Translations under genes and position numbers: made by a program
Shown here: piece after piece, positions 1 to 64,000 of the stretch
Numbering within the stretch: position 1 is the first letter of the stretch
How the letters are laid out: each line of letters begins with the position of its first letter
The notes under the pieces: model-generated
What the model saw: the letters and a program-made list of their open reading frames with translations, nothing else
What the model was told of the DNA's origin: nothing
Database searches by the model: none
Assembly: GCA_029261065.1 (NCBI GenBank)
Contig: JAJDCB010000011.1
Span: 47,168-111,167 of the forward strand
Length of the DNA stretch: 64,000 nt
Direction of reading: 5' to 3'
From: Candidatus Omnitrophota bacterium
GTDB lineage: Bacteria > Omnitrophota > Gorgyraeia > Zapsychrales > Zapsychraceae

Positions 1-560
1 TTGATGCCAAGGTTTACATTGATCAATAATGCGACTCAATCTTTAAGAGGAGCCACTCGATCCTTTGTGCATGGGAATTACAATCAATCCATCATCCAAT
101 TTACCAAAGCCATCAAACAATCGGATAACAAGTGGGATGAGCCTTATTTGGGACGAGGAAAGGTCTATTTGGAGCTTAAAGAATATAAATTTGCTGAAAT
201 GGATTTTCGAATGGCTTTATCTTTAGGAAGTGATAATCGTGAAGCGAAAATGTATTTAGGGCGTTCATTATACTTTCAAGGACAGTTTCATGCCGCGGAT
301 CAAATATTTTCACACCTAACGGTAGCTCAATTTGATCGTCGAGATTTTTATCTCTGGCAAGCAGCTCTGTTTATTCAATTAGAACAATGGAGACGTGCCC
401 TATTTGTTTTAAATGCCTATATTGATTTTATTCCTTCTCATCCGACGGCCCTGATATATCGTATCTATACACATACAAAACTCGATCAACTAGATTTAGC
501 GCATGAAGACATAAGAAGGCTTTTTGCCATTGGGTATGCTCATGATAAGTTTGATTTTAT
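1..560 (+). other. TPR-like repeat region (domain of giant ORF)
   Basis: Translation shows 34-residue helical repeats with the W/LG/Y...A...F...A pattern (e.g. ...GRGKVYLELKEYKFAEMDFRMALSLGSDNREAKMYLGRSLYFQGQFHAADQIF...). Confidence 0.5.
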
Positions 561-3500: not shown

Positions 3501-6500
3501 GGTGAGAGACAAAGGATCTGTTCTTATATATTCTAATAGCGCAAAGTTATTTCAGGAAGGTAAAGAAGATGCCCGACATGACGCCAATTTGGCCAACCCA
3601 GAAGATAAACATCGAACGAGTTATTCTGGATTCAAATTGAGCGAGTTTGCGTTCATATCTTTCCTCCAGATACTCAAGCAGATTTTCTCTAGATCGATGT
3701 TCAATTCTATCAAGCATGTTAACCAACGCCTCAGCTCCTTCTTCCGTGAGTTTATCACGAAGGATTTTTGGAATGTTTATCACAATTCCCATACCGTTCC
3801 CCTTTCTTTAAACAGATTATTACGAATGGATCTTATCGGGGAAACAACGTATTGGGGGATCCGGTATGTTTCAAATATAACATTGATCAATATATCCGTC
3901 AAGATTTTTGCCTCAAGCCCTGCCCGAAGAATAAAGGCTGAAGGAGGAATTTTTGGAGTTCTTAATAGGGTTAGTCGGATTCGAGAATTTTTTGAGAATA
4001 GAACGGTAAGGCGTGATCCGCATGACAAAATTGTTTTAATGACAGAATACATAGAAGCAGCGTTTGAGAAGTTTAAATCAACGGAAAGTTGGGCGCGGTC
4101 AAATCATGTTATAGCCTTGGCGGTGGAGTTAGAGAAGATTGAAGTTTTTATGCATTCTTTTGTTTCGCGGAATAAGAGATATGTTCAGCAACTGGACTAC
4201 GTTGTATTACTTAATATTGTTGGTATTACGCAACAGTGGTTACAGATGATAGAAGGTCCTTCTGATACAGATGAGACAAATATGATTCATCATGAAAAGA
4301 AAAAAGAGCGAATTCAAGAAGCTCTAGAAACAAGAAAACGAGTTGAGGATTCATTAAAACGTTCAAACAAACCTAATCGAAGGCATAGCTCATCATCGGC
4401 ATTAATAACAAGGGAACTTAGCCTTAGTAAAGCATTGATTAAGAAGGTCAGAAGGACAGGCGAACTTGTAGTATCTGTCTGGGGATCGGCAAGAGTAAAG
4501 ACGCCGAGTTTAACTCAGCCATTAAAAGATGCTGAAGACTTTGCGAGTCAGATCGGAGAAAAGATAGAAATTAAAACAACAGTAGTGACAGGTGGAGGCC
4601 CTGCGATTATGGAAGCGGGAAATAAGGGGCAGAGATTGGCCGATCCTAAGTTCAAAGGTCATTCTATTGGGTTATCTATTGCGTTACCTTTTGAGCAGTA
4701 TTCAAATACATTTTTAGATAAGAACATAACTTTTAAATATTTCTTCACCAGGATTTTGACCTTTTTGCAGTTAAGTCATGTCTTTACAGCTTTTAAGGGA
4801 GGAGCGGGGACCCTGCATGAAGTGTTTGAAATTTTGGTCTTAAAAGATAAAGGAGATACGGATGCCGAGGTTATCTTAGTGGACAAATCATTTTTTGGAT
4901 TGATTCAGGTCATATTAGAGAAGATGAAGGACCTTGGTTATGTCCGTCATATTTCTGATGAGCTTATTTATATTGTTGATTCGGCGAACGATGCTTCAGA
5001 GTATTTAAGAAAACAACGTAATAAATTATTGGCCCAAATTGAACTAAGAAGAAAGCAAAAAGTTGATTTTAAGATAACGGATATTATTAAAGACTTTAGA
5101 CAAGCAAAGAAGGATTTTGCTCATGTTAAAAAATCGGTAGCGATTGTTGGATCAAGTTACATGACAAAAGAAAATCATCTATACACTTATTTACGATTGT
5201 TAGGATTAACACAAGGGTTATTTAAGGAAGGTTATACCCTTCTTACAAGAGGCGGTTTAATTACGCAATCAGCTCATGAGGTCCTTGAGAAGCAGGGTTT
5301 AAGTGAAGAAAGATTAATCCGTGTCGGATTAAACGGAGGAGATAAGTTAAGAGATGAATTTATCGATGGTATATCGCCCAAAAAATTCAAAGATATTAGA
5401 TTCTCTCAACGTTTTAGCCGTGATGCGGCGATGGAACTGGCGGCTAAAGAAGGCATCATCTTCTTCCCAGGCGGTGTTGGCACGATGTTAATCTTTAGTC
5501 GAATGTTAAGTTTACTGCAGACAGAAAAGTTAGATAAAGACAAACAACACAAACGACCATTAATCCTCGTTGATTCAGAGTTCTGGAAACCGGTTGATCA
5601 ATGGGTTCAACAGGCGATTGATCAAGGGCTTATCAGCAAGGTGGTCAGAAGTTATTACACCATCATTGATCTTGATGAGAATGTAACAGAGAAAGTTACC
5701 GGTATTCTTCGTTCAAATCAGATTGCTTCAAGTCCTATAATTAATGAAAATGACAAATCTGATGGTGAAGATTCTAATATTCACTCTTCATCGCCAATAA
5801 CAGATTTTACTTTGGATGAGAACATCGGTTTACACCTCCAAAGTGAAATTCAGTTGAGTTCACCTATGAAGAAACTTAAGAAATTGGCCAAAGAGAAGCA
5901 TCTAAGTCTTGAATTTTTTATGCGTATCGAGAAATTAGCACCCACGCACAGAGAAGATTTAAAAGCTTTATTAATTGATACCATTTTTCCAAATGTTATT
6001 GATAACCTATCATTACTGCAACAGCATTTTTATGATAAGGGGATGCGTTTGAGAGCGTTAAAAACATTCATTAGGAGTCTTAAAAAGGTTCAAAAAATTC
6101 TAAGTCAATATTATCGAAAGAATTCAAGAAACAAAGTTTTTCAGAACATTTATAAATTTGTGGATGGAGATGTTTTTCATAATCTTTTTCAAGCTCTTAT
6201 TAAATATTTTAGTAAGAAAAGTAATGAGTTTTTAGAGCAGGAAGATGTTCAAGAAAATATTAAGGAGCTTCATAAGTATATTCTAGACGTCATCCATATC
6301 ATTAGTACTTTAGATTGGTTGCATGATGCACCTCAAGAAGGACTTATAAAAGATGTTCATTTAGGAGTAAACATAGATTGGGCAAAGATGATAATTGGTT
6401 TTGATCCTTATTACGTAGAGAGTCTAATGGAATCATTAAATGAAAGAAGTATTTTAGATGAATTTAATCATTCTCATGGAAAAATATCAAATCTTAAAAA

Positions 6501-9500
6501 TTTATATTTTGAGAGTATTACTTTTGTTTTTATGGAAGTTTTATTAAATGCGATTTTTTATGGCAGCGATAACATAATTATTAAAACACGTTTGGAACGA
6601 AATAGGAAATATGTGGTTATTGAAATAGAAAATAAAGGTCGTTTAGGTGTTGATGAAGATAAATTATTCAATTTTTATCGTAGCTTTGCTGGTAAGAAAC
6701 TTGATATCGCGGTAACGGGTGATGGTTTTGGTTTAGCTTTGTCACGTCTCTTTGTGGAGTTACATGGGGGGACAATTAGAATTGAAGATTATAGAAGTTC
6801 ATCAGAAGAAAATTGGGTGCGCACAACAATAAGGTTGCCGAATGTTTCTAGTTTAGATGCTAATAGAAGAAAACAAAAGTTATTTAGAGAAAAGAGATCT
6901 TCAATGTCCCCAATGATAGAGCTAATAGACAAAGAAAAATTTAACTGGGATCATTTGAATCCTTTGTCTCAAGCTCCGCCGAAAGCTAATGCGTCATTTA
7001 AAAAGACCGCCACCTCCAGTCCACTTCAAACCCTCACAATTAATACAATTGACGTTAGTTTAAACCCAGTCCTTGACCCAACAGTATTGTCCTGGATGTT
7101 AGTGTTAGTACCTTTAGCTATTTTAGTTTTCCTTTTCCATTTTGCAGCCCATTATGTATCAAATGATCATCGACTTACCCAACTTAGAGAATGGTTTGCT
7201 GCTCAAACACGGGATCAGTTGTTACAAAAAGTTTATAATTCCGAAATGGGATTTTTTACAAGTCCATATTATCAAATAGCGAAAGCTGAGCGAAAGATTG
7301 CAAAGAGAATTGTTGCCCTCATAAAAAATCCAGAAGACTTAATGCAAGAGCCAAAGGTATTTAGCGATGTTGCCATTAAGACGCAATTGATAACGAGATT
7401 AAGACTCCTTTCCTTACCGATTGATTTTGTTATGGCTGTCTTGTCGGAGGTTAGTCAAAAAGATAAAAATTTAATGGTTCAAGAAAAGGCAAAAGAAGTA
7501 TTAAGCCGCCTAAGAGCTATCGGTGAGCAGTGGAGCAAGTTTACTCAAGCCATCTCTATAAGAGACAAAGATAATGATAATGAAGGGGCGTTAAAATTAT
7601 TTGAAGAAATTGAAGAAATGTTGCCAGATTGGGAGGCTGTTCATTTTGAAAAAGGAGTTACCTTTGAGGAGATGCATCGGTATGAACAAGCAGAACAGTC
7701 TTTTCAAGAAGCGGCAACATTAAGTAATAGTTCAAGAGCTTATACGAGATTGGGTCAGTTGCGTAATGATCGAAGAGATTATGAGGGCGCACAAACAGCC
7801 TATCGACAAAGTATTACAGCGTATAGAGGAGATTCGCAAACGTTACACTATTATCTCGGAGATGTTCAGGCGGAGTTAGAAAATTATGACGAAGCGATTC
7901 AAAATCTCAACGTAACAATCAAAGCCAAATCTCGGAGAAGCGATGAGATCAAGATGCGAAGGGATGCTCACCTAAGACTTGGTGAGATTTATGTTTATAA
8001 AGGAAATAGAGATAAGGCCTTACATAATATAGAAACGGCCCTTCATACAACAAAATTACAGGTAGCCATTGATTTATTGCCGTCTCTAAAGAAGTATATT
8101 TTTAATCGACCTGAAGGGCAGGAATTTTTTGAAATGTTGCAAGATTCAAAAATGTTTTCAGAAGAAAAAGAATCGATTCTAAAAATTATTGATCGGATAC
8201 AAAGCAACACAACAATTCAAAAACAATATCCAGAGCTTATGGTTAAGTTGGATGTTGAATTTAGGAGATGGGGCATGATGCCCAACATCAGTGAAGCGAC
8301 TAAGAAATCACTAAGGCTTAATGCAGAGTCTGTTGGAGCAAGAGTTGATCGTTTTGACTTTACTGTAGAGATGCTAAATATTTATACTTCTAAAGATTAC
8401 CAGATTTCAGATCGTTATTTTGTTGTAGAGACAAAATTAGTTCATTTGTATTTTATTCAAAGACAGACAGCGCGATCGTCACAAGAGTTATTATTTTTTG
8501 TCCAACGGGTATCTGATAAATCAATTCAATTAATTATCCCAGAGGATAATACAGTTATCACTTTACACGGTGATCAGCTTTATTGGCAAGGTTTACCTAT
8601 TAATACAATAACGCCACCCACTATATATCTGGCGGATCTCCAGCATTTAAGCCCGAGTGTGAAGAAATTTATTTTAGTTTCCAGCCCGATGCCCCCCCCA
8701 TCAGAATCAAGGCAAGAAGGAATTCCGAATTTTCAGGTTACTCGTGTATTTGTACTTATTCATGCTCTTTTATTTATCGTTTCACTATTGGTTAATTTAT
8801 CTTATAACGGTTTATTTATAGTATTAAGCGTTCTTGGAGGATTAATCGTTGATCGAAGTTATGGCGGACGAACGATAGAGCAAGTCTTTAGTGGGACAAT
8901 GATCTATGATCGACGGCTATATCAGTATATCCGTCACCCCATTTATCTTGGGTATAGTAATATATTTATAAGTTTATACTTGGCCACAGATTTATTTGCG
9001 ATAGAAATGTTTTCTTTAGTGTTATTGGTAGTGTTTTTACTAGGAATTATAGACGAAGATATCGCATTGAAAAATAAATTTAGTGCAATGGCAGAAACAA
9101 CCGATAATCCACAGGGGATTGCGGAAGTTGCCGCATACTTTGAATACAAAAATAAAACGCCTATTATTCTACCTAAAATTAGAAATATTAAATCTATGGT
9201 GATTGATATTATTTATGGAGAAGGATCATCGCCATTCAAAGGAATAAAAACCATCTATAAAGTCTGGAATATTCTTCATTTAACGTCGTTGTTGCTATTT
9301 AAATTATCCTTAAAAGGGATTTGGAAATTTATACGGGCTGCTTATTATTCGCCATTTAGATTCATTAGTTTTGTTGCAACGTTGGATAAACGAAGTTACA
9401 CACTTTTAAAATACATTGATCGTGACGGAGATGTGAACCTAAATCAGGTTTTAATTGATCTAGATAAAAATTTAATTTTTGGAATATACGAAGTAGTTGA

Positions 9501-12500
9501 CCTAAATATGTTTGAAGGCGTAATGAAAGTGCTTGGAGTTGATTCGAAACATATAAGAATTAAATCCAATGGGGCTCCATGGATGTTGCATCTTTTTGAT
9601 ACGTATCAAATGATGGGTTGGGGTGGCTATAAAAACGGAGTTCGAATTGAAAACTTAGATATGACACAATTTAGCTTTGTTTTTCATACACTATTTATGC
9701 CTAATGCACCGTACAAGTATATTTTGAACAAAAGAAGTCAACAGAAGATAATACAAAAAAGAAATCACACGCATTTAGATTCGAGACGAAAGGTAGTTGT
9801 TGTTGGGTCCGTAAATAGAGAGAATGTTGATTTTCTTGTCGATATTTATAATCAATTTGAACCCACTCAAAGGCCGTTATTGATTTTTGCGATGAGGAAC
9901 GATAATCAAATGACGAAAGAAAATCTTTCCTTTAGAGATGATATAAGCGTTGCCACACGTAGATCCGTTGATCCCTATTTAACAGCACAAAACATACCAT
10001 TTAAAGACTTAGATGTTGTTATTTTAACGACCCAAGGTGAATTGAAAGATTTATATGCAATCGCAGATGTAAGTATTATAGGACCAGATCAAAATATGAA
10101 TGAGTCTATGACAAATGAAGTCTTTACATTCCATTTTGGTAACAAAAATGAGTGGATCAATAACGCGTTAATTTTAAAAATAGCCAAAAAGTTTAATGCC
10201 GTCAAACAAATCCGTGTACCAACATTTTTTATAGACTTACAAGACGCGTTAAATAATCCAACTCAAAAGCAAGGAGCTCTTCGTAAATCTAATGAATACT
10301 TCGATAACATTATCATACCAACAGAACAGTTGCTTGCCAGATTATATATTGCCAACGCCCTATTAGGAGACGTCAAGACTGGCTCAAGTCCTCTTTACCT
10401 AATAGAAAGTGACAGGCACCAATTAAGCTCGCCCATGAGCGGGAATCGAAATAAAAGGGTGCCTGTCACGGATTATTTTTTTATTAGAAATTATTGGAAA
10501 TTTCGTCGTAAGGCACAAGTGAATGACGTGCATGTTGAAGATAGCATTGATGCAGAATTTACGACAGATAAAGAAGGAGAGGTTAAAGAAGACCCTTCAT
10601 CAGCTCTTAAAGAGCAAGGAGAAGGATATGGTTATAAACAAATTGTATTAAATATGACATCAATTTCAAGCCCATTAAATCCATCAGATATAAAGAAAGA
10701 GGGTATTGAAAGGGTTGTTCAACAATTAAACCAAAATGGTTTTAGCCAAAGACAATCTGAAATTATCGCGGATGAACTTGTCAGTAGCCTTAAGTGGCTT
10801 AAACGATGGTTTGCTAATTTTGAGGAGCTTAGTAAAAAACAACAAAATAAAATTTTAAAAGACGCCCTTTGGTATAGCAAAAATTTAAAATCTTATAAGA
10901 CGTATAAACATATTAGAAAAATTAAATTTTCTAGTCATTTGCTTAGCTTTATTATTATGTTAGTTGCGTTAAGAGGGATAGTTTTTGACGAAGACTTCTT
11001 GGTTTTAAATTGGATGACGTTAGTCCTTAGTATCGTATCAATTTTATTAACTATCGGGTATGAGATTTGGGATGTTATAACGGATCAAGGGTATTATTTA
11101 GAGAAAACAAACTCGGTAAAAATCAGAATTAAAGCTACGGATAATGAATCAAAATTAAGAGAGCGTGTCGCTCATGAGTTAGCGCATGATTTTCTTAAGA
11201 AAGAAATCGTTGTTGAAGCCTTTGCTCGTTTACGTCTTCTAGCAGGAGGACATCAACATATGAATCCTGATGTTGTCAAAGTCGTCGAGGAGTTTCCTGG
11301 TGATCTCAAAAAGGTTCAAGAAGTTCTTAAAGCCAGAGCCAAAAAACCAACAGGCATTTACTCTTATATTATTCTTAAATTCATCTATCCTTCCATATGG
11401 GAATATGATTACGCTCATCAACTTGCACAAGTCATCTATCATCTCTCCCAATACAACGATAAACGAGCCTTCCAGACGGTATTTCTATTAAATAAAAAGT
11501 ATTCTCTAGAAAAAGCATTAAAAATGAGTGCTGAGTCGAGTTCTGCAATGAGTGTGAAAGCCAATGATAAGAAGGTAAGAAAAATAACAAGTGACAGGCA
11601 CCAATTAAGCTCGCCCATGAGCGGGAATCGAAATAAAAGGGTGCCTGTCACGGATTATTTAGTTAATAGTTTACAGTTTAATTCATTAATAAGCTTAGAC
11701 GGCTTTAGAAGCAATTTAGAGTTAACCTCCAGCGAGAGAATAGGTTCTCGAGAATTGACCCTATTTATTCCTGTTTTTGCCAATTTAGCAATGAGACGAT
11801 CAGAGGAAGCTGGACGAGCGAGGCGGACATCAAAGCCTTTTTCACGGAGTTTGAGTGATATTTCTCTCGGTATATTTTCATCACAAATAATACGCATTAT
11901 TCAATTTTTTAATAGTTTACCTAAACGCTACGGATTCGCCGCGTTTCATAAGGTCACTGGCAAAGGAAAGGGCCGCTTTAATGTGCTGTTTGGTCAATTG
12001 AGGATAGTAACGGGTAAAAATCTCCGATGGGCTAACACCCGCTTGGAGAAGTTCAAGTACCAGGTAAACCATTATGCGAGTACCTTTAAAGCAGGGTTTA
12101 CCGTGGCAGATTTTTGGATTGATAGTTATATAATTTTTATAATTATTCATAAAAAGAAGTTCCAGCGCTTGATTAATATATTTAAAAGTAACATAGATAA
12201 TTCTTTAGGTCAAGTTGCGGTTGCGGAAAGTCGTGGACTTGGCTTTAGGCGTTCTTTAGTAAGCGTGAGCGAAGACATCATTATCCCGCAAGCAAGCTCA
12301 TCTCCGCTTAGCAGTAAGAAAGATCTATATAAATATAAATTTAATCAGATTAACTGGAAATCGGAGCGTCGTCGCGTGAAAGAGGCCCTTCGCCAGGTTA
12401 AAAACGGCAGACGCTTTAGCAATCGCATTACAGCATATGTGGATGGAGAACAAATATGGGGTAGGTCGGGACATAATGATATTTATGACTGGATGCCAGA

Positions 12501-15500
12501 TTATAAACGTGTCGCCATGTTCCGACCTGACCCTAGTTCTTTGATAGCTAGCACTCAAGAAAAGTCAGAAAATTTATCTCAAGAAATTATGATAATAAAA
12601 AGTGACAGGCACCAATTAAGCTCGTCAATGAGCGGGGATCGGCCTGCCGCGGATTATTTCCAAGCCTTCATCGTCGAACACACACAAGCCGCTACAGACA
12701 GGATTGAGTTTGCGCGTCAGCAGTTCTTAAAAATACAACAGATGACAAATCAGCAATTATTTGATGGCGCTATAAAAATTATTCGTCGAGGGATGGTGAA
12801 ATATGATCAAGACTTGGAAGATGTTATAAGAGCTTATTCTGAAAGAACAAAGGGGATAGGTTTAAATTTGGCTCGAGAAGCTTTGGTTAATGATGCGGCG
12901 GCGTTTATGGATGCTGTAATGAGTTATCAAATTTTGATAAGTGATCAACAACAAGAGGCCACTCTTGATCGTATCTTTGTGCGCGCCCAATCAGATGGGT
13001 TCTTAGATCTTCACATAGATAACCGTTTGACTTTGTACATGGACCATAATTTAAGGGAAGAAATTCTTAGTAATTTCTCTAAAGGGGTAGAGGAAGCAAA
13101 AATAAGGTTAACTCTTAATAAGCTTTTTAATATTTATATTGTTCGATTACTCCAATTGGTTTCTCTAAGAATTTGGGATGATCCGATTAATAATTTAATG
13201 GCATTACAAACATTAGTTGATGATTTAAATCATTTTACCAGTCAGGGGCAGAAACGACAGGATACGTTATTCGTCACACAGGCCACAACGCTTTTAGCTT
13301 TAGCTGTTTCAGCTACTGTTAATGCTAATGATGAAGAGCAATATTATCGTAAATTTGCGGATTTTATTAATAAGACATATCTTCTTAATGAGAATCAGCA
13401 GTTAGAACTTATGCTTGCCCTTGTTAAATTTAACGCTCAACACTTAGCGAGCTTGATTCGCTTTAAATCACGTGTAGCCGATATGTTTAGAAAAGAAAAT
13501 CGAATGGATTTCTATCTTGCTGTGCACGGAGTGATTGTTTTATTACAACACTATAAAAATTTAAAACAACAACATCAAACCGTAACCGTTGAAAAGATCA
13601 CAGAAGCCGTTCAAATGATATTTGAGACGGACAAGGAACCCTTTTTAGGATTAAGAGAGCCGGAAACATTAAGTGCTTTATTCACGCAGATTTTGGTGAA
13701 AAATAACCATATTGTCACAGACTACTACTTTTATTTAATTCACGACAATGCGAATGCATTGTTAAAGGACATGCAAGATTTTAATGTAGAAGGTAAAAAA
13801 TATGCACCGCTGTACAACGAAGTCTTGTCTCCCGACATTTTATTTGAGGCCATGATTCGCAACAAATTTCTAAAAAAGGATGAAAGCCTAAGAACCCATA
13901 ATTTCATTTTTGAGTCACTATTAGAATCCACACAAGATCCATTAAAAGCACAAGCTTTTCACAATATATTCAGCATTGAGACATGGGGGCTGGGTGTTTT
14001 TGGTAGAGAGCTTATTGATTTAGATAGGACATATGAGGTGTTAAGGACGTTTGGTTCAATTTCCAGCTCGCCTATAAATTATAACCCACCAGAGGCCATT
14101 ATAGTATCCCATAACCAAGGATTCCGTTTTGACAAAAGTTACGCGCGTATTATTATTGATGGATATCGTAAACTATCTAAGAAATCGGGTGTACTTTTAA
14201 AGAAGTCTTTGCGGAGTAGTGAAACAATGGATGTGTACGAAGGTATTTATCCTGTTGATTATTGGTCATTTAGATTTGATGACGTCTCGATAATTAGCAA
14301 TTACAGGCCGTTTCGTGCTTATCGTATTGAGCAAGAAGAGCGTGTGAGTACGACTTTTATGGCTTCACAAGAAGTTGTTTTAGCTACATTTGGTTGTTCG
14401 TCCTGTGCTCCTGTTTCATATTTTGGTGTTATACCAGAGGCCGGTGAACAAATAATCATGCAAGGACATATTATGGCTGGAATAACTGACCGCATTGGAG
14501 TTAATCAATTTCTTAGGATTAAAGAGGATGTTGATTTTTTAAGGGGGTTAGGTGTTCGTCATATTGAGGTGATTGCTTCGATTGATTATAGAGCTGCTTA
14601 TTGGCGAGAGAATCTTCAACAGTCTATTTGGACTCCAGATTTTTTTACCTTTCCTTCTGATCCAGAAGAAATTATTGGGGAACTAGGAGACGATGTAAAA
14701 GTAACAATCTTGACAACACCAAATAGGAGATTCATTAGAAGAGATATGTATGCAACAAAGTATGGTGTGGCTATTGTTCCTGCAATTGACCCGGAGGCTT
14801 TTCATGTGTTTGATTGGCAGGGGTCGTTGGAAGGGCAATCTTCTCCGACAAAGGCGTCTAGCCCAATGAGGATTAATCCTTTTGATACGCAAACGGAAAT
14901 TAATTTGTTTGAGTTAGCTCCAGATACACAATTTGAAATCGAGATATCTGATCTTAGATTAAGTAGCAATGGTGTCAATCTTGGATACCAATTGGGTCGA
15001 TTTATTCAACTGTTGAAACTTTCAAGAGAATTACAAGTGAGAGCCGAGAAGGGTGGGTTGAATGAAATGGTTGCTTCTTTAACTAAAGAAGAAAATTCTG
15101 AGAGTTTGATAAGTAGTTTCTTTAGTTCCGATGAAATTAAACATTCTCATCAAAAAGAAAGTGAATCCAACGAATATGTATTTGTAATGGAGATTTATAA
15201 TTTATTGCTTCAGTTCCTTTCAGCCAAGTTTAAAAAAGATCATCTTATGTGGTTACCTAGTGCTGCAGAGCAGGTACGTCTGAGATGGGAAACAGAGGTC
15301 GTAAGAAACAATTTTATTTCGGAGTATATTTCCAAACAAACAATTATAAAAATGATATCTATGGGTATTGAAGGGATGGAGCGGGTTTTCAATCCGGAAT
15401 CGGAAATTAAAAATTTGATTGGGTTGTTAACAGGATCCGGATTCAATATTAAAAGGACCAATGGTTATGGATGGGCGAAAGATCGTAGGCTATATCTCCC

Positions 15501-48500: not shown

Positions 48501-51500
48501 CGGAAAAATAAGTCAGCAGTTATATGATCAGGTTATAGCCCTTCGTTTTGGAGAAAGGTCTGAAGATATCCGTTTTAATTTTGACCCTGATCCAAAAAGG
48601 ACTTTTGAGATAAGAAAGCCCTCTAAATTTATTAAGGAAGGGCAGAATACAATTAATGTGCGTAACTATGTAAATAAAAAACAACTAGAAGCGAAGAGTA
48701 TCCAATTAGATAACAAAGAGGGTAAGAATTTTAAAGGAACAAGTGATACGGTTAATTATGTTATTCGCACGACGACTGATTCTGATCTACAGGCAGCGGT
48801 AAATCAACAAATGGCACAGCTCAGGAAAGAAAATCCTAAATTTGAATATAGTGTTTATTTAGTAGAGTTAGGGTTAGATAAAAACAGGCTTATTGCCGAA
48901 TATGATTCAACGGATGATTATAACGAAAATGGAATGTTGGCAGGTGGTTCAACGGCAAAGGTAAGAATAATTGTTGATTATTTACAACTTATCGAAGAGT
49001 TTTATAAAGATCCAGAACAGGTTAACTTATTAAAAAACATTTATAGTCAGTTATATCAAAAGAATAAAACGTTTAACATCGAAAAAAGAACTTACAAGAA
49101 CCTAAGTTCGCAAACGTCGGTAGAAATGGAGGAGTCCTTGTTATGGTGGTTAGCAAAATATCGAGCAGCGCATCCACAAGCATCTATGGAAGATGTTTTG
49201 CGCGGATCCCTTGAAAGATCTTTTTCTGGTGCCCAAAAAACATTTTATTCAGAAAATGATACGAAGTTTGAACCAGTAAAGCAGTTAAATCAATATCCAG
49301 GATCAGGGAAGACGATGACGCTTAAAGACGCCTTTGCTCGATCGAACAATATTATCTTTGTGAGCCTTATGGAAGAGATTCGAAATGTTGAGATTGCAAG
49401 AGTCGTTTTAAATAATTCACAGAAATCTCTTCAAACACAATTTAAAACAGAATATAACCATATTCCTTTTTCAAAACGAAAAGGAGCTTATTTTCATTTT
49501 CTTGAAGAGAAAGCATTTGAAACGATAGAATTACGATGGCGTGTCTTTGGGTTTGGTGAGCGGAGTATTTATTGGAATGGTAAGGGGGCAGACATTCGAT
49601 TGCGGCCTAATTTGGGTGTTGCTCTGGGCGTTCCAGAATCAGCGTATTCCTTGACCAAATTGATGGTAATGCTACGAGATAACCATCAAAAAGATCAAGA
49701 CCCTTATGATCAATCTATAACGAGAATTGAACAAATAACGATGGGTCCAGGAGCGCCATTTGAAGTTAATATGACAGAGTCAGGTAAGCAGACCGGTAAA
49801 GGGTTTATCTCATTGCCTGTACGACGTCAAGCTTTAGAGCTTCTTCAAAATGTCGTTAATCATCCCAAAGGAACAGCAAGATTTCTTAAGAGTCTTAGCC
49901 AAGGGTTTGAAATGGGTGGAAAAACAGGGACCGATGCTAGTTCTAAAGCGGGGGTCTTTCCGTTTTATTTTGGTAATAATATTGTTGGGACCATCACTGT
50001 TTGGAATCCTAACAACGGAAGCACGGCAAGTAGTTATCGCGCGGTTAAAGTTTTAGGAGAAAATTTATTGCCAGAAATTAAAAAATATAAGAAGAGAAGT
50101 GCAACGAAAAGTAGGATTACGGCAAAGGACGATGCCAAAAATTTTCCCAAATCACATTTCTATGACGGATTGACATGGGTGATATGGGTTCTAGGAGCAA
50201 TAGGATTTATTCTGCCATTAATGTATCTTTATGCCCGATTAGGATATCTAGTTATTAAACAAAGGGTTTTTGGAGTTGTTGCACAGGAGAATCAAGAGGA
50301 AACTAAGATAGTAAAAGAAAAAATGAGTATAGGTGAACGTTATCAACGTTTTAAACTTTCGTATCAAAAATTTAGGAAAGTTACCGTCAATAGGCAGCTA
50401 AGTTTGATATTTGCTATATATCTAAATAGACAAGCAATAAAAAATATTAAACGCAAAAAATTAATTTCGATAATAAAGAAATTTACTTCGTCAAGCTCTC
50501 CATCTAAAACCTCTTCCCCCCTTATTCCAATCAATAGATATGGATCATCGGAGGAAGGTAAGAAGAGAGGGTTGCGCAGGAAATTTATGAGATATTATAA
50601 AAACAAAAAAATATATCTTAAAATAAAGATTCTGAATATTGCAAAGAAAGTGTTTTCTTACAGCACAATAATTGTTTTTAGCATAGTGATTTCCATATTC
50701 AACTTTTCTCAAAGTTTAGAAGCTCAGGCTAAACAAATTGAAACAAGACGTAGCGACTCGTTAAAAGAAGTGCAAAAAAGATTTGGAGGACATTCGCAGG
50801 AAATAAATCTTCGTTCAATGGATGTAGCAGAATTAGAAAAATCTCTTTCTGATGAGGATTGGATAGAAAATATTAATGTTATAAATGAACTAGAAGATCG
50901 TAATTGGAAGCCAAAGACACAGCGAGAAAAGGTTATTTATTTTATTGTTAAAGGTCAATCTTTAGATGCTGCTGCCGAAGGAGAGGCTGCCATTCCGTTA
51001 CTTGTTAAAGCGTTAAGTACTAATCATGGTTCAATAGTTATGAGTGCTTCCGAAGCATTAATTAAGATAGGTGGCATGGGAGGAAAGGGGGCTATACAGG
51101 CATTTACTGAGGTTGTTCGAAAAGGGCGTTTTAGAAGAGTTAAAAGCGCGGCCGTAGAAGGTTTGGGTAGTTTAGGGGATCCAAAGGCTATTCCTGTTTT
51201 GGTTGAATTTGTATCTGATAGGAAAGGATATGTTAGGAAAAATGTTGTTACGATCTTGGAAAAATTAGGATGGCAACCTGTATCTCAAGAGGAGAAAATT
51301 ATATATTTCTTTGTTAAAGAAGGTTTGGATGAATTAATTAAAATTAGGCAACCGGTGGTCTCCTATATTCTTAAGGTTAATGGGGAGAGAAATAGAAACT
51401 TTAGTGCTTTTGAAGTGATGGTATTAGGAAAGATTGGAGGAATGGAGGCTGTAGAAACTCTTATTAAGTTTGTTCGAGAGAGGGGTAAAGGAAGAGAAGC

Positions 51501-54500
51501 GATGGCTGATGCCTTGGGTAGTCTAACGTTTTCTTCAAAACTATATGAAAAATTATTATTGAATGAAAATGAATATGTGATGAGAAAGGTATTACAAGAA
51601 TTTGAGAAATCAGGGTGGCAGCCAGATTCACAAGAAGATAAAATTTTATATTCTTTACTTAGAAGGGATTTGAAAGAATTAGTAAAAATTGGGCAAGCAT
51701 CGATTCCCTATATAATTAAGATGCACGAATATAGGAAAGGAGATGTTTTCCCAGTGATGGTCTTAGGAAAAATTGGAGGACAGGAGGCTATAAAAATACT
51801 CGCTGAGATTGTACGAAATATCAATTTACGCGGAGAAGTCAGAAATGCTGCAGTTGAGGGCTTGGTTGAGTTAGAGAATTTAGATGCTCTTTTTGATTTA
51901 GTTAAATTTTTCAACAAAAATACCTATAATCTGAATTCGGAGGTTAGATACAAAGTTTTTATTAAAATAGGTTTGTTGTTGGCGCAAAAGGGAAGAACTG
52001 CTGAGAAAGAGTTTGCTGATTTCATTTCTTATGTGTTGAAAAATGACAATCTGAATAGTTATGTAATAATTTTGCAAATAGGGCAGCCGGTTGTTCCAGT
52101 GTTAATTAAGCTTCTAGAATTATCTGACTATCATGCACACTCTAGAGAAACAGCCTCCAAGTTACTCATAAAGTTGAATGCTGCGAAAGCAATTCCTATT
52201 TTAGTGAAGGCGCTTGTAGAGGAGAAGCATTCTTTTCCTCGGCAATCATTTAAATTTTCTTTAAAATCTCTTAATGGGTATGAGTCTGAAATTGAAAGAG
52301 AATTATTAAAATATATGGAGTACAAAGATCGTGCCATTAGGCAACGTGTAATAATCTTATTAGAACAGATTCTGTCATGGAAACCAAAAACACAAAAACA
52401 AAAATTTGAATTTTATTTATTAAAGGCGGATTGGAAGTCGCTTGCAGGTATCGGGTCATCGATCATTCCTGCATTAATTCAAGTTCTTGAAGAAGGTACA
52501 AACAAGGAGGAGCTGACATCAATCAGAGCATTAGGAATAATTGGCGATGAGGCGGTTGTTGACCGTATCTTAAATAACTGGGAGATATCTCATTTTAGAA
52601 CAGAAATGGTTAAGGAGATTGCTAAAGCTTTAATCAAACTGGATGATTTAAATAGCTTGGTTGAGCGCATAAATGAATTGGTCACCAGAAAAAGAACTGA
52701 GCTTATAGTAGAAATAGTTAAAGTTACCTCCAATAAAAAGGATTTACTAATATTGTTTAATCAAACGACAAATAACAAAGTTCATTTGGCTATCATTGGA
52801 ATGATTGGAGATATAAATAATATTCAATGGGTGCCTTTTTTAAATTCATTGGTGTCTAATCAATTTAAATATTCGCGCGAGATTAGAACGTACGCTGAAA
52901 AGTCTTTAGAGATTATACGCTCTAAAGTAAGCGCGGAGGAATGGGAGAAGGTAAGAGCTCCGACATTAATGGAAGAATTAGCAAAGATTGATTATCGAAA
53001 ATATTTTTATGCGGTTGGTTTTGGAATGGGAGTCACGGCCCTGTACCATATCATTGTATCCACTATGGGATTATTTTTGTCTTTTATAACATCTATTAAA
53101 TCAAAACGGTTACCTTATTTTCAAACGTTGAAGGAATTTGTTTCCTTGCAGGAGTTCGAGGATACCAATCAAGACATCGTTACCCGGATTGTCAGATTCG
53201 GCATACCTCGATTGGAATACGCCACATTGATTATGATATTTGTAACAGCATTCATTATCTTTTATGGAGTCTTTATTGTCGAAGTCATTACAACATATTT
53301 TCAGTTGATTGCGGTAACGAGCTCGTTATTAATGACATGGTTCTCACTTAATTTGAAGCCTGTATTACGCGCATTAAGGAAAATTGTGCGTATCATCTCT
53401 TTTCCTGTTGTTTATTTGAAATTTCTTTGGAATTATATTTTCTCTGGATTTACAAAACCAGAGCAATTCTTTATGTACAGACGGTTGCAGTTTCAACAAG
53501 GAAAAGAAATTATGAAGGGCATTGAACAACGACTCTTAAAATATACATACGAAGATCGTTCTCAATTGAGACCGACAATTCTTGAAACAGTTTATCAATA
53601 TTCAAATAAAGGAAGAAGTGTTGAAGTATTACTTACGGGTATTGTTCCAGCAGTTTTAGCATCATCGGAAACATTTCAAGAGTATCAAGAGAAAATGGAG
53701 CTCATCATCGGTTCGGATGGAATATTAGAGCAAGCTGAAGCTCGTCATAATCTTTTTGATGAAACTATTGCAAAAGAACTTCAAGTTTATATTTCAGACA
53801 AGAATTATGTGCTTAGTTTAGAGAAATTGCAGCTTTTAAAATCTATTATTGTTATAACCTCGGAAAAAAGTGGGCTTATCCTAAAAGTTTTAAATAAGAA
53901 AGTTGTGACTTTAGAAGAGATTGAACCTTTTATTAAAATTTTACCTTATAAAAATGTCTTAGCGCATATTGTTGGATTATTTGGCGTGAATTCTAAACTT
54001 ATTATGAAGTTTAGAGAGGCAGGACGTTTGAATACGTTTTTGTCACTTATTTTGAATGTTGCTAAGAGCAAAAAGCAAGAGGCAGAGGTTGATATTAAAA
54101 GAGTATTTGAAATGGTACTTAGTCATGAAGCACTGATTCTAAAAGATAATAAATATATAAAGCTTATACCGGACATTCTTGATAATGCAAATAATTATAT
54201 AGGCGAAGAAAAAGACATAACAGGTTATTTTAAGGATATTGTTCCAGAAGTATTAATGGTGTCTGAAACCATTGAGGAATATCAACAGATGATGGATGTG
54301 ATTGTAGGTAAGGATGGAATATTAAAAAGAATTAGAAGGATTGATAATCCATTTGCAGAAAGAATTGAAAAAGAATTCCGACGATATATCACAAATGATG
54401 AAACTATTATTAGTTTAGATAAGTTAAAACTTTTAAAATCAATCATTTCTATAACGCAGGCTAACAGTGAGCTTATATTGAAAATGTTAAATTCTAAAGC

Positions 54501-57500: not shown

Positions 57501-60500
57501 TAATTATTTTGATCAGACAGAATCTATACAACATATTTTCAACACATTGATGCAAACTACAAATTCTAATATCTATTACAGCCAAAGGCGAAATTTATTA
57601 AGTTTAATGTTGCCATTAAGTGAAGAACAACTCAATGATGAGATGGAGCGCATTATTGAAACAAATTCATTTGATGTTGTTAATCGTAAAGAAGCTGTGC
57701 AGAATCAACTTACATCGTTGTTAATTAGAAGGGTTGGTCAAAATGCCTTTGATAGTTTAATAAGGTATTTATCAGCAGAGTCAACTGAGAACATTCCGTA
57801 TGTTGATGTATTTGCCCAAAGCCTTCCAGAAGGCGCTAATGCGGATGACTATAGATTTATACAATATAAAGCAAGAGATGACAGTCAGGGAAAATTTGAT
57901 CTTGTATATGAGGATCTCGTGGGAGATGAAATTTCCAAAGATTATAATGATTGGATTCATACATTATTTCCAATCAATGATCATGGCGCCTCCAGTCCTA
58001 TAAAAGGAAACATCTTTGAATCCCCCAATTACGTCTATCTCCAAACCAGCAAAGCCGATAAGTTACATATGTTAGGAGATAATAATCGTATTGCTTCCGC
58101 TATCATTGAAATAATCCAACCACGAGCGCCACCGGTTAAAATTTCTTCACCTGTCAATTCCTCTGTAACTATTAATGAGAAATCTATCTACTTGACCCCT
58201 TCAAGAAATGTCAATGCTGAGATTATTACAATGGACGTAAGTAAGGTTAATGTCGAATTATTTGTAGATCCAAAGGTCTTAAATAGGGATTTTATAACAG
58301 AGCCTCCTTTTGAACCGATTAAAAATATGGGTATAACGATCGAGGAGTTTGTTGAATTCAAAACAGGAGATCAAAGAGTCATTGTTGCATTTAATGGTGT
58401 CCAGCCTAATTGGGAAGGATCATTCTTAGCGATTGTTAATGGCAAATTAATGAAAAAGGAATATGGCGCGCGCGGTTTATTCCAAAAGGAAAATGCTGCA
58501 GTTGATGGTAAATTTTGGTTTATTAGTTTTGATTCAACAAATAAGAGTGTTTCCGAAATTGTTATTAAGAATGGTCAAATATCTGGTGAGACAACATTTA
58601 ATAATGCCATTTATGGTCCAGCTATTATTCGTGATGGTGTAACTTACGTTGATACGATTGAATTTGGTACAAAACCAATACGTACGGGACAACAATTAAT
58701 TTGGAGAAGAGATGTGGCAATGGCAATGTCGGCCATTGGATATAATCAAGCAGGAGCTTTGGTTCGTGTCGCTGTCTTTGAGAATATTACGATTGATCAG
58801 TTTGTAAATATATTGATCGAACAAAATTTAAGAGATGCCATTCTTCTTGGCACAAGTGCTGATGTAAAAACTTATCAGAATGTAACAATACCATCCTATC
58901 GGATTGCTGAACCAAGACCTGAATCTTATACGGCCCACTTTTATCCTGAAGAAAGACCGTTGGGGACATATATTGCTGTCATACAACCACGAGCACCACC
59001 GGTAGTAGAAGGAAAAGACAACGAGAAAGATGCCAGTAATTCTTCTCCCATCTCTCCTAAAAGTAAAAGCAGACGCTTTAGAAGTAAAAGCAGACGCTTT
59101 AGCAAAGTGATTGGTATTTCTAGGCTTAGAGAAGAAATCAGGGTGAACGATTCTTTCGATAGCTTGTTAATGTCAAATATGTCAGCGTTTCTTGACACCA
59201 ATAATTCCAGAAATCGAGTTGCTAGTCCGTTGGATAATAGCAAAGATGTCTCAAATAGAGACAGCAATTCTCAGCAATCTGATCAAATAGATCCGTTGGC
59301 TCGGTTACGTTTATTAAACTTTGAATATAAGTATCTAGTTGCTTTACTAGATTCTAGAACTGATATTCATCGTATTGTGCGTTTATTAGGAGCTGCGATA
59401 TTCAAATTTCAGTTGGTCACGTATATCATGAGTCATAACCCATTTGTCAGTTTACCTAAATTAAACAGTTTGATTTCAAAAATTAAACAAAAAAAGGTTC
59501 TTCCTCCGGAATATTATCAAATATATTACGATTATCCTCTCGCATATGGAATAAAACATTTAGAAAATGTTAAGTTTATCTCTTATGTTCTCGGGGTTTT
59601 ATTTATCCAAGGAGGACTAGGTGAGGTTAAGCCAATCCTTGACGCATTCTTTAGAGAAAATCTTGATTGTGCTACTTGCGATATAAAACCTAAAAGATCG
59701 CCATTAGTTTTATATCCAACGGGATTAACGCATAATAATTACCACAGTTCTTTTGTGAGTCATTTAAGAAAAGTTATGGCCCCATTTATTCCTGCCAATA
59801 GCCAGAAAAAGGATATGGAACAGACAATAAGTCATGTTATTTATCCAGGTGTTTTAGATGGCACTGAATCGCAGGGAGAAGAATATTATTTTATTTTAGA
59901 CAAACGTTATTCCATATTAGGGGATGCTGTTCTCACGTATATTGTAAAAGTTAATTTATGGAAAAAATTAAAGTTTACGCGTAATCATAAAACTTTTTCT
60001 GAGCTTTCAATCGTCCTTGAAAAGAATGTTTTACTTAATGAGATGATGCGGAATATTTTAACCTTATGCCCATGTGACATCAAAGGATTTAATGATCACC
60101 ATTATGCAGATCTATTTGAATCTATGATCGCTGTAGTCTACGTGGCAAACGGAGAGGGTGAGCGAGGTATAGAAAGAGCAACTGCCTTTGTTATGGACCA
60201 ATTTGTTCAGTTTTTTAGGGCGACAAACAGACAACTTTCGCCGGAGATGGAACTCTTTCTTGAACAAAAATCCCCTAGCGGAGAATCAAGTTCTTCCCCT
60301 GTTGTTCTATCAGAAAGCTACAACAACCGCATCTTTCCAACTTTAATGAAGGATCTTCTTGATAAGGCCCAAACAAATGGTTATGCGATTCTTAGTATTT
60401 CGGGTCTTCCGGGGTTAGGTAAGTCAACGACTGCCCGGGCGTTTGAAAGATATTTGAAAGAACAAGGCGTTGCCGCGCTTTATATAGAAAGTGATTGGTT

Positions 60501-64000: not shown

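Follow-up and report, generated by a model that had tools for sequence, protein, structure and literature searches.

The open frame and the modules of the chain

The 64,000-nucleotide (nt) stretch of DNA analysed here, referred to as the window, is occupied from edge to edge by a single stop-free reading frame of 21,333 codons (frame 1, 1..64000 of the + strand), which was recognised by a stop scan, by its codon-position signal, and from the list of open reading frames (ORFs). This frame is most probably an internal piece of one genuine giant gene of the Omnitrophota type, at least 21,333 codons in length, whose product would be a multi-pass, membrane-anchored, multi-enzyme protein.

The six-frame stop scan recovered no TAA, TAG or TGA in frame 1, whereas each of the remaining five frames contains between 1,019 and 2,226 stops, and is open for 477 nt at the longest. 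At a GC content of 36%, stops are expected at 0.076 per codon, and the probability of a stop-free frame 1 arising by chance is approximately 10^-736. An earlier note on this DNA had described the whole 64 kb as one uninterrupted frame of at least 21,333 codons, absent from the ORF list, with every listed ORF of the + strand in frame 2, and these statements were borne out: the + strand has 10 ORFs of at least 60 amino acids (aa), all of them in frame 2, and none of the ORFs on the list lies in frame 1. The longest ORF outside frame 1, on either strand, has 148 aa. Two other origins of the open frame, stop-codon reassignment and the read-through of several genes, are ruled out by the complete lack of in-frame stops of any kind.

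The composition of the codon positions in frame 1 (GC1 0.43–0.49 > GC2 0.28–0.37 >= GC3 0.24–0.35, with RNY at about 0.3) is uniform over all sixteen 4-kb blocks of the window, and the frame therefore appears to be coding over its full length. The GC skew is positive throughout. Tandem Repeats Finder (TRF) detected only three tiny arrays, and self-BLAST, together with a repeat finder, recovered no more than a few local duplications, of 25–88% identity, which were classed as ancient; the translation is thus not low-complexity filler, as the earlier note had maintained. The gene continues beyond the 3' edge of the window, while the 5' edge probably also lies inside the gene, given that a TPR-like repeat already begins near codon 10, although the start may lie among the first few codons. 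The claim that the gene exceeds the window on both sides is thus proven at one end, and probable at the other. Methionine codons preceded by a motif of the Shine–Dalgarno type account for 18 of the 478 in frame 1, as a raw count.

The domain content of the chain was examined by Pfam scans on pieces of 5,000 aa and then 1,000 aa, and by searches of the PDB sequences over the same stretches. Approximately 12 domain regions lie above the Pfam gathering cut-offs and some eight more lie below them, with the recognisable domains covering roughly 12% of the length of the chain. At least nine distinct families passed the curated cut-offs: TPR, Lysine_decarbox, HATPase_c, Methyltransf_25/11, ELFV_dehydrog (with its N-terminal partner), Mpv17_PMP22, HEAT_2/HEAT_PBS and Ribonuclease_3. 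The more than 25 recognisable domains of the earlier note are therefore a generous estimate, which is reached only if single TPR and HEAT repeats are counted. The enzymes that it listed divide in the same way, with the kinase-type ATPases, methyltransferases, dehydrogenase and RNase III being supported by the profile models, while the ligase and the acetyltransferase are reduced to sub-threshold hints. The matches to ATP-grasp (E 0.006), GH3 (E 0.01), GNAT (E 0.02) and PEMT/ICMT are all below the Pfam thresholds.

Two TPR arrays are found towards the 5' edge of the frame (all of the features described here are on the + strand). The first (aa ~13–190; 37..570) was recognised by Pfam TPR_1 at aa 49–76 and by TPR proteins of the PDB at aa 11–188, and the second (aa 2517–2680; 7549..8040) by TPR_1/2/16/8, with E-values down to 4e-13, and by the TPR region of OGT in the PDB. 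Between them lie a LOG/"Lysine_decarbox" (SLOG) domain resembling nucleotide phosphoribohydrolases (aa 1490–1675; 4468..5025), which is supported by PF03641 (E 2e-30) and by cytokinin riboside 5'-monophosphate phosphoribohydrolases of the PDB (E 3.5e-23), and the first of three GHKL/HATPase_c domains (aa 2172–2290; 6514..6870; PF02518, E 2e-9), similar to VanS and other histidine kinases in the PDB. The second of these domains (aa 12013–12140; 36037..36420) matches PF02518 at E 1e-11, and the third (aa 14353–14472; 43057..43416) at E 2e-28, with KinB, ZraS and SrrB as its PDB matches. A class I S-adenosylmethionine (SAM)-dependent methyltransferase (aa 9378–9495; 28132..28485) is above the cut-off of Methyltransf_25/11 (E 5e-10), while a weaker methyltransferase-like motif region of the PRMT kind (aa 6759–6822; 20275..20466) is below that of Methyltransf_31 (E 1e-4), with PRMTs in the PDB at E ~5e-4.

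The 3' third of the frame holds a membrane domain of the Mpv17/PMP22 family (aa 14572–14627; 43714..43881; PF04117, E 2e-10, above the cut-off) and two groups of HEAT repeats (HEAT_2, E 1e-41 summed over the frame). The first group (aa 15101–15181 and 15469–15493; 45301..46479) was recovered by HEAT_2 (E 4e-17) and HEAT (E 6e-8), and the second, a long HEAT/alpha-solenoid array (aa ~17014–17566; 51040..52698), by HEAT_2 (E 8e-29), HEAT_PBS (E 5e-18), the alphaRep proteins of the PDB, and its own internal repetition. An RNase III-like domain (aa 19969–20051; 59905..60153) passes the cut-off of PF00636 narrowly (28.6 bits against 27, E 2.5e-6); it contains the signature-like motifs ILGDAVL and ADLFESxIAVVY, and also holds a CPC cysteine pair. 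This domain is followed by a P-loop NTPase motif region (aa 20117–20163; 60349..60489), for which AAA_16 (E 1e-4) and nSTAND3 are both below the cut-off.

A divergent module resembling the bifunctional class A penicillin-binding proteins (PBPs), and directed at the cell wall, may tentatively be placed at aa ~15900–16660 (47698..49980), based on sub-threshold Pfam matches and on motifs. Here, a Transgly match (E 9e-5) is followed, approximately 550 aa later, by a Transpeptidase match (E 3e-4), both of which are below the cut-off. The motifs occur in the canonical order, with GAGSTVTLQ and YGFGAQG...YFG in the GT51-like part, followed by SNN (SxN) and GGKTGT (KTG) in the transpeptidase-like part; motif inspection revealed no clear SxxK candidate in this region, and the PDB sequences gave no match to it even at E <= 10. 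The putative module is flanked by two hydrophobic helices, at aa 15733 and 16720. Models produced by AlphaFold2 without an alignment were unusable both here and for the RNase III/P-loop region, with a mean pLDDT of 34 and 36, respectively.

Hydrophobic segments are distributed along the whole frame. A crude hydropathy scan recovered between 45 (strict) and 71 (lenient) hydrophobic 19-mers, grouped into about 21 clusters, which supports the transmembrane (TM) clusters of the earlier note, put there at 12 or more; one example, with about seven segments, spans aa 7526–7826 (22576..23478). Numerous predicted TM helices are thus spread along the chain, as in the Omnitrophota giants, with soluble stretches as long as 3,100 aa between the clusters. 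The longest stretch with no hydrophobic segment (12090–21510, aa ~4031–7170, about 3,100 aa) contains no supra-threshold Pfam domain, the PRMT-like region being its only sub-threshold match. In a second such stretch (53226–60555, aa ~17742–20185, about 2,400 aa), the RNase III-like domain is the sole match above the threshold.

Relatives and published giant proteins

As far as sequence searches reach, the only part of the tested sequence with detectable relatives is a module of approximately 600 aa similar to the Glu/Leu/Phe/Val dehydrogenases (aa ~12150–12800; 36448..38400). It is supported by ELFV_dehydrog (E 8e-26) and ELFV_dehydrog_N, the N- and C-terminal pair spanning aa 12345–12731, by glutamate dehydrogenases (GDHs) of the PDB, and by the homologues P0001–P0016, and it retains the catalytic motifs KGGLRY, GGGK, GAGDVGG and EGAN. 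A HMMER scan of 1.84 billion representative proteins with aa 11900–13099 as the query returned 569 relatives. The top-ranking ones are long proteins (4,821, 5,136, 3,302 and 5,905 aa), with E-values down to 7e-107 and about 30% identity over some 600 aa, while ordinary GDHs of 400 aa reach only ~1e-12. The homology is limited to the module, of which each of the three best relatives contains two copies. All seven of the taxon-labelled relatives, among the proteins looked up, belong to Candidatus Omnitrophota.

These three best relatives (P0001, P0002 and P0003, of 4,821, 5,136 and 3,302 aa; for example, MGE0267326.1 and MCA9392677.1) share the dehydrogenase-like module with the window, at 24–32% identity, and are equally poor in cysteine (0–0.08%), but they are four to six times shorter than the frame of the window, carry two copies of the module each, and belong to loci of 50–57% GC. 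Their genes (3.3–5.1 thousand aa, kaa) lie in one conserved locus (L121 10001–24466, L123 10001–25411 and L124 10001–19909). Downstream of them, the order is PilZ followed by hom-thrC-DFP-pgm-ask-leuA, with homoserine dehydrogenase, a PALP enzyme, DFP, phosphoglycerate mutase, aspartate kinase and LeuA as the products after PilZ. The giant genes of Omnitrophota are reported in the literature to have a PilZ gene immediately downstream, and a secretion locus of the T2SS/T4P kind upstream.

Based on this module, the gene is likely to belong to Omnitrophota. A gene of the same kind from some other phylum (other PVC lineages, Elusimicrobiota, Margulisbacteria, Actinobacteriota or others) would be conceivable, given that proteins of at least 10 kaa are known from several phyla, that the taxonomic evidence comes from one module, and that the arms of the palindromic element described below are common to repeats on many high-GC metagenome contigs. 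This alternative appears unlikely, however, in the light of the seven Omnitrophota labels, and of a domain list and a multi-enzyme architecture with many TM segments that are those reported for Omnitrophota, while the giants found elsewhere are mostly of the repeat type or have few detectable domains.

In the other parts of the frame that were tested, no homologues were detected. Searches with a word index of 5.8 billion proteins recovered none for aa 5001–6500 at E <= 1e-5, nor for aa 12001–17000 at E <= 1e-6, thresholds that are too strict for E-values from a collection of this size, and at E <= 1e-3 the region of aa 12100–12800 gave only two ordinary GDHs. This scarcity agrees with the published figure of 80% singletons among the sequence clusters of long proteins (Nielsen & Lui 2026, bioRxiv 10.64898/2026.06.07.730766). 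The two long stretches with no homologues, and the lack of a match to an exact 41-mer of the window start in the representative genomes of GTDB or in the JGI metagenomes, are also what would be expected of a synthetic, concatenated or computer-generated sequence. A non-natural origin is, nevertheless, extremely improbable. The domains are divergent and yet correct in their motifs (the catalytic motifs of the GDHs, the RNase III-like signatures, and the GT51 and transpeptidase motifs), the copies of the palindromic element are in decay, with a change compatible with G-U pairing, and the internal duplications are ancient (25–88% identity). The same odd purge of cysteine is found in real Omnitrophota relatives, and new long-read genomes of Omnitrophota that are missing from the older collections are known to exist.

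Two studies provide the frame of reference for a gene of this size. West-Roberts et al. (2023, bioRxiv 10.1101/2023.11.21.568195) report 46 Omnitrophota genes above 90 kb in length, with products of up to 85,804 aa and with many TM regions in all of the full-length giants, and describe a main type, "Archaeovorin", with the giant protein of Velamenicoccus archaeovorus as its type sequence. In this type, HEAT, TPR, glycosyltransferases and methyltransferases are abundant, and its list of the top 20 domains includes HEAT_2, HATPase_c, TPR, Lysine_decarbox and methyltransferases, with HEAT being the commonest. Nielsen & Lui (2026) counted 3,650 proteins that reach 10 kaa and 348 that reach 30 kaa, with a maximum of 147,155 aa, and defined a class of "multi-enzyme metabolic cluster", and a Pfam "Module 1" that consists of a methyltransferase, HATPase_c and GNAT. 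In the same study, TM segments make up approximately 2% of the residues of long proteins, and the Omnitrophota giants have about one TM helix for every few hundred residues, the same order of density as that found in the window.

With at least 21,333 stop-free codons, the frame exceeds the 10,000 aa of the "large" tier of the very long Omnitrophota proteins, and it is likely to belong to the giant tier (>=30 kaa). The earlier note placed the gene at the outer limit of what is described for bacteria, a view that did not survive comparison with the Omnitrophota proteins of 85,804 and 147,155 aa, and the idea that the mix of domains fits no described architecture also failed, given the match to both the Archaeovorin list and "Module 1". 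With the Archaeovorin type, as described in the available passages, the window shares one very long ORF, many TM segments, and HEAT as the commonest domain alongside TPR, HATPase_c, LOG and methyltransferases, as well as the strong divergence of these domains, the long stretches that defy annotation, and relatives of its module that are large Omnitrophota proteins followed by PilZ. The dehydrogenase-like, RNase III-like and Mpv17/PMP22 domains of the window, by contrast, do not figure in those passages, in which "glutamate dehydrogenase" was the only one of these to be searched for as a term.

The likeness to the multi-enzyme class is equally close: many Pfam families tile the chain with none dominating, the TM helices are spread out, tandem repetition at the nucleotide level is almost nil, and the sequence is essentially a singleton. 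The components of "Module 1" are present in the window as a methyltransferase (PF08241), HATPase_c (PF02518) and a weak GNAT, together with HEAT and TPR scaffolding. The window differs from this class in being a fragment, with no sugar-metabolism module detected within the 64 kb. The classical giants (repeat adhesins, and the RTX/Ig/cadherin and RCC1 types) and the megasynthases of the non-ribosomal peptide synthetase and polyketide synthase (NRPS/PKS) kinds share with the window only a size class of more than 10 kaa, and the Pfam scans of the window recovered no adhesin, Ig, RTX, condensation, adenylation, ketosynthase or carrier-protein domain, and the repeat searches revealed no dominating tandem domain. 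The contrast with the adhesin and Ig-repeat giants that was drawn in the earlier note is thus sound, and the identity of a repeat-type adhesin or an NRPS/PKS is ruled out by the domain content and the lack of repeats. The giants of the dockerin type and other tandem-repeat scaffolds also differ, given that the window has few tandem repeats and no Pfam match to dockerin, TSP3, WD, NHL or similar dominating repeat domains. The window is most probably a new and sequence-unique example of the Omnitrophota giant multi-enzyme membrane proteins already described, rather than a new type of gene.

Cysteine depletion and the palindromic element

Cysteine is almost completely lacking from the chain. Only 12 of the 21,333 residues (0.06%) are cysteines, whereas approximately 326 TGY codons would be expected from the base frequencies at the codon positions; TGG, TAT and other codons adjacent to the stops are not avoided in the frame. 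The depletion holds over the entire window, and all 12 of the residues are paired, in five CxxC motifs, at aa 4799/4802 (14395–14406), 5367/5370 (16099–16110), 7998/8001 (23992–24003), 18703/18706 (56107–56118) and 19890/19893 (59668–59679), and one CxC, at aa 20023/20025 (60067–60075).

The large Omnitrophota relatives present the same condition, with 3 cysteines in 4,821 residues, 4 in 5,136, 0 in 3,302, 0 in 1,915 and 1 in 5,905. The genes that neighbour the relatives in three loci have normal levels of about 1% (53/5,305, 64/5,660 and 48/4,875), and the difference between relative and neighbours is pronounced in the two loci compared (Fisher p 6e-14 in L123 and 3e-11 in L124). Given the normal levels in the neighbouring genes, the purge is specific to these proteins, and is not a trait of the proteome. 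The terms cysteine, CxxC and disulfide have no matches in Nielsen & Lui (2026), and the available passages of West-Roberts et al. (2023) contain no mention of cysteine depletion.

Secreted proteins that cross membranes in an unfolded state, such as autotransporter passengers, the substrates of type I secretion and S-layer proteins, are typically poor in cysteine. By analogy, the purge would favour an exposure of the chain outside the cytoplasm, although it may have other causes, such as the avoidance of mis-crosslinking in a huge chain. A purge that is specific to these proteins bears on the question of whether giant proteins act within the cell or outside it.

The second peculiarity of the frame is a short palindromic element, inserted in frame, which encodes a 23-aa peptide, SDRHQLSSPMSGNRNKRVPVTDY. 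Six copies were found, four of them intact, one truncated and one a remnant. The intact copies begin at aa 3470 (copy 1, 10401..10480), 3864 (copy 2, 11583..11662), 8474 (copy 4, 25413..25492, with a hydrophobic helix directly after it) and 9313 (copy 5, 27930..28009). Copy 3 (aa 4201; 12594..12660) is truncated, having lost its 3' arm, and the remnant (aa ~5921; 17723..17780) is a decayed 3' half that encodes a peptide ending in FVPVTDY. The element is approximately 78 nt in length and sharply bounded, with perfect 12-bp inverted arms, GTGACAGGCACC and GGTGCCTGTCAC, and an outer AATAA/TTATT pair. The intact copies are predicted to fold as stable RNA hairpins, of -29 to -35.5 kcal/mol (z -3.6 to -6.3), with copy 1 at -35.5 kcal/mol (z -6.3) and copies 2, 4 and 5 at z -5.9, -4.1 and -3.6, while the truncated copy has no significant fold (z -0.2).

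The element is conserved at its synonymous sites, and two of the copies share an identical stretch of about 72 nt, whereas the flanks are unrelated. The perfect inverted repeat and the conserved synonymous sites point to an element at the level of the nucleic acid, rather than to selection on the peptide. Only one of the six possible combinations of frame and orientation is free of stops within the element, and all six copies use that one, which suggests that selection keeps the giant ORF open.

In its behaviour, the element resembles the Rickettsia palindromic elements (RPEs), intragenic palindromic repeats that are inserted in frame and leave the ORF intact (reviewed in PMC10969869). With the RPEs, and with repeats similar to transposable elements of the miniature inverted-repeat kind (MITEs) and repetitive extragenic palindromic (REP) sequences, treated in the same review, it shares a short palindrome in multiple copies, insertion in frame, a conserved peptide, an unbroken ORF, and copies that range from intact to decayed. 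The RPEs differ in being longer (~150 bp, against ~78 nt here), and all of the copies in the window lie in one gene; the likeness drawn here is one of behaviour. By this analogy, the element may be regarded as an intragenic repeat of the RPE/MITE kind, and as a candidate mobile element. No clear target-site duplication was found at the copies, and no cognate transposase was identified within the window. The window contains no Rfam family at the gathering score, and the element itself has not even a sub-threshold match. An exact search for a 23-mer of the element in the GTDB representative genomes returned no match, and palindromic elements are mentioned neither in Nielsen & Lui (2026) nor in the available passages of West-Roberts et al. 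(2023).

The arms of the element also occur outside the window. When metagenomes were scanned for the two arms around any interior of 28–48 nt, GTGACAGGCACC...GGTGCCTGTCAC was recovered with different interiors on at least 120 environmental contigs (for example, L041:3664–3724, L010:1264–1324, and L113:2262–2322 and 2454–2514). Among the matches listed, these contigs are mostly of 55–70% GC, none carries the interior of the window element, and the dominant type is GGAAAAG-arm-TTTTGCCGGAACGGCCCTTCGGGTGCTTCGCACAAAA-arm-CTTTTCC, with three mini-hairpins and variable tetraloops. The shared arms may reflect either common ancestry or a common recognition site. The arm pair had no match in viral contigs, ten loci of the metagenome family yielded no Rfam family at the gathering score, with the sub-threshold matches being generic miRNA-hairpin noise, and a literature search with the arm sequence returned only unrelated primer matches.

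Other local repeats are few. A second short repeat, of 73–84% nt identity, encodes a basic peptide of the approximate form SKSRRFSKVIGISRLREEIRV at 25360–25410, 42352–42432 and 59077–59157 (+); one of its copies lies directly upstream of copy 4 of the palindromic element, and a TRF array (59061–59102) is located at the third site. A unit of approximately 286 nt is triplicated locally at 25491–27246 (+; aa ~8501–9083) and encodes a hydrophobic helix (…AIGLVLYMLxGQDIM…), with two copies that are 93% identical in nucleotides (88% in amino acids), the most recent duplication in the window.

The sharp boundaries of a conserved peptide found in five to six copies, within a protein that is otherwise non-repetitive, and the presence of a second short conserved peptide three times, raise the question of whether the frame encodes a giant polyprotein, a single chain cut at SDRHQLSSPMSGNRNKRVPVTDY and/or SKSRRFSKVIGISRLREEIRV into many membrane and soluble proteins. 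Cleavage by C39 or S8 peptidase domains is raised as a possibility in a passage of West-Roberts et al. (2023). Such processing seems improbable, however, given that a perfect 12-bp inverted repeat with conserved synonymous sites underlies the peptide, that its copies decay, and that they cluster at 10.4–12.7 kb and 25.4–28.0 kb instead of being placed between domains throughout. The window yielded no peptidase domain.

The near-identity of the copies also bears on the integrity of the assembly. Copies of a 78-nt repeat that share their frame, two of them identical over some 72 nt, would allow a short-read assembler to jump from one to another with the frame kept, and genes or strains might thus be joined in frame as a chimera, through the collapse of the repeats, for example. 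An artefact of this type is, nonetheless, very unlikely. A misjoin cannot generate 21,333 stop-free codons (P ~1e-736), and could at most reorder pieces of giant frames. The composition, codon-position signal and cysteine depletion are uniform throughout the window, and assembly errors usually break giant ORFs, rather than creating them.

Possible organisation and role of the chain

Several points weigh against an internal piece of an Omnitrophota giant. The frame fills the window, and no start, stop, flanking genes or marker genes were recognised inside the 64 kb, which was judged as assembled sequence. The assignment to a phylum from the sequence hangs on a single module of some 600 aa at 24–32% identity, and the GC content of 36% contrasts with the 50–57% of the relatives' loci. 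The window also departs from the Archaeovorin type, as available passages describe it, in that the Pfam scans recovered no SecA_DEAD or SecA preprotein-binding domain and no C39 or S8 peptidase, the latter expected near the N-terminus, all of which may sit outside the window, and no glycosyltransferase (GT5/GT1), glycoside hydrolase or NUDIX domain, nor PPDK. The TM calls derive from hydropathy, and the topology contains a tension of its own, given that the cofactor-dependent, "cytoplasmic" enzymes and the purge of cysteine point to opposite sides of the membrane. None of the four alternatives considered above (another phylum, a non-natural sequence, a polyprotein or an assembly artefact) displaces the reading of the window as part of one giant gene of the Omnitrophota type.

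Under the reading of a giant Omnitrophota gene, the frame would be translated as a single polypeptide, anchored in the membrane by multiple passes, with about 20 clusters of hydrophobic helices alternating with soluble stretches of 0.3–3 kaa. The chain would carry TPR and HEAT scaffolds together with a LOG-type nucleotide hydrolase, three GHKL ATPases, SAM methyltransferases, and dehydrogenase-like and RNase III-like modules, and may include a divergent PBP-like module, directed at the cell wall, between two hydrophobic segments. Such a membrane-tethered mega-scaffold could hold enzymes and binding surfaces (HEAT and TPR) at the envelope of an ultrasmall bacterium that is host-dependent or predatory. 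We infer the translation as one chain, the topology, and a role at the envelope or in the interaction with prey from the two papers on giant genes and from the anatomy of the frame.

A further proposal, which is bolder and has a low probability as a whole, unites the two peculiarities of the frame, with the cysteines having been purged for an unfolded passage across membranes, and the ORF having been colonised by a palindromic element whose hairpins are functional. In this view, the giant Omnitrophota proteins would lack cysteine as a rule, including in modules descended from ordinary cytoplasmic enzymes, and the reason may be that the chain is threaded unfolded across membranes, possibly in part into the cell of a prey or host, where the modules that depend on ATP, SAM and NAD(P)H would meet their cofactors. 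The hairpins of the element, in turn, could serve as sites of processing, pausing or stabilisation in an mRNA of more than 64 kb, and might conceivably be targets of the protein's own RNase III-like domain.

The window extends neither the size record nor the architecture of a class of proteins that was described in 2023 and enlarged considerably in 2026. It most probably adds a sequence-unique example to the giant membrane-anchored multi-enzyme proteins of the ultrasmall, host-dependent Omnitrophota, a class that was recognised recently and whose function is unexplained. If the proposal on cysteine and the hairpins were true, either the threading of a cysteine-purged chain or the functional hairpins would represent a new principle in the building or expression of such genes.

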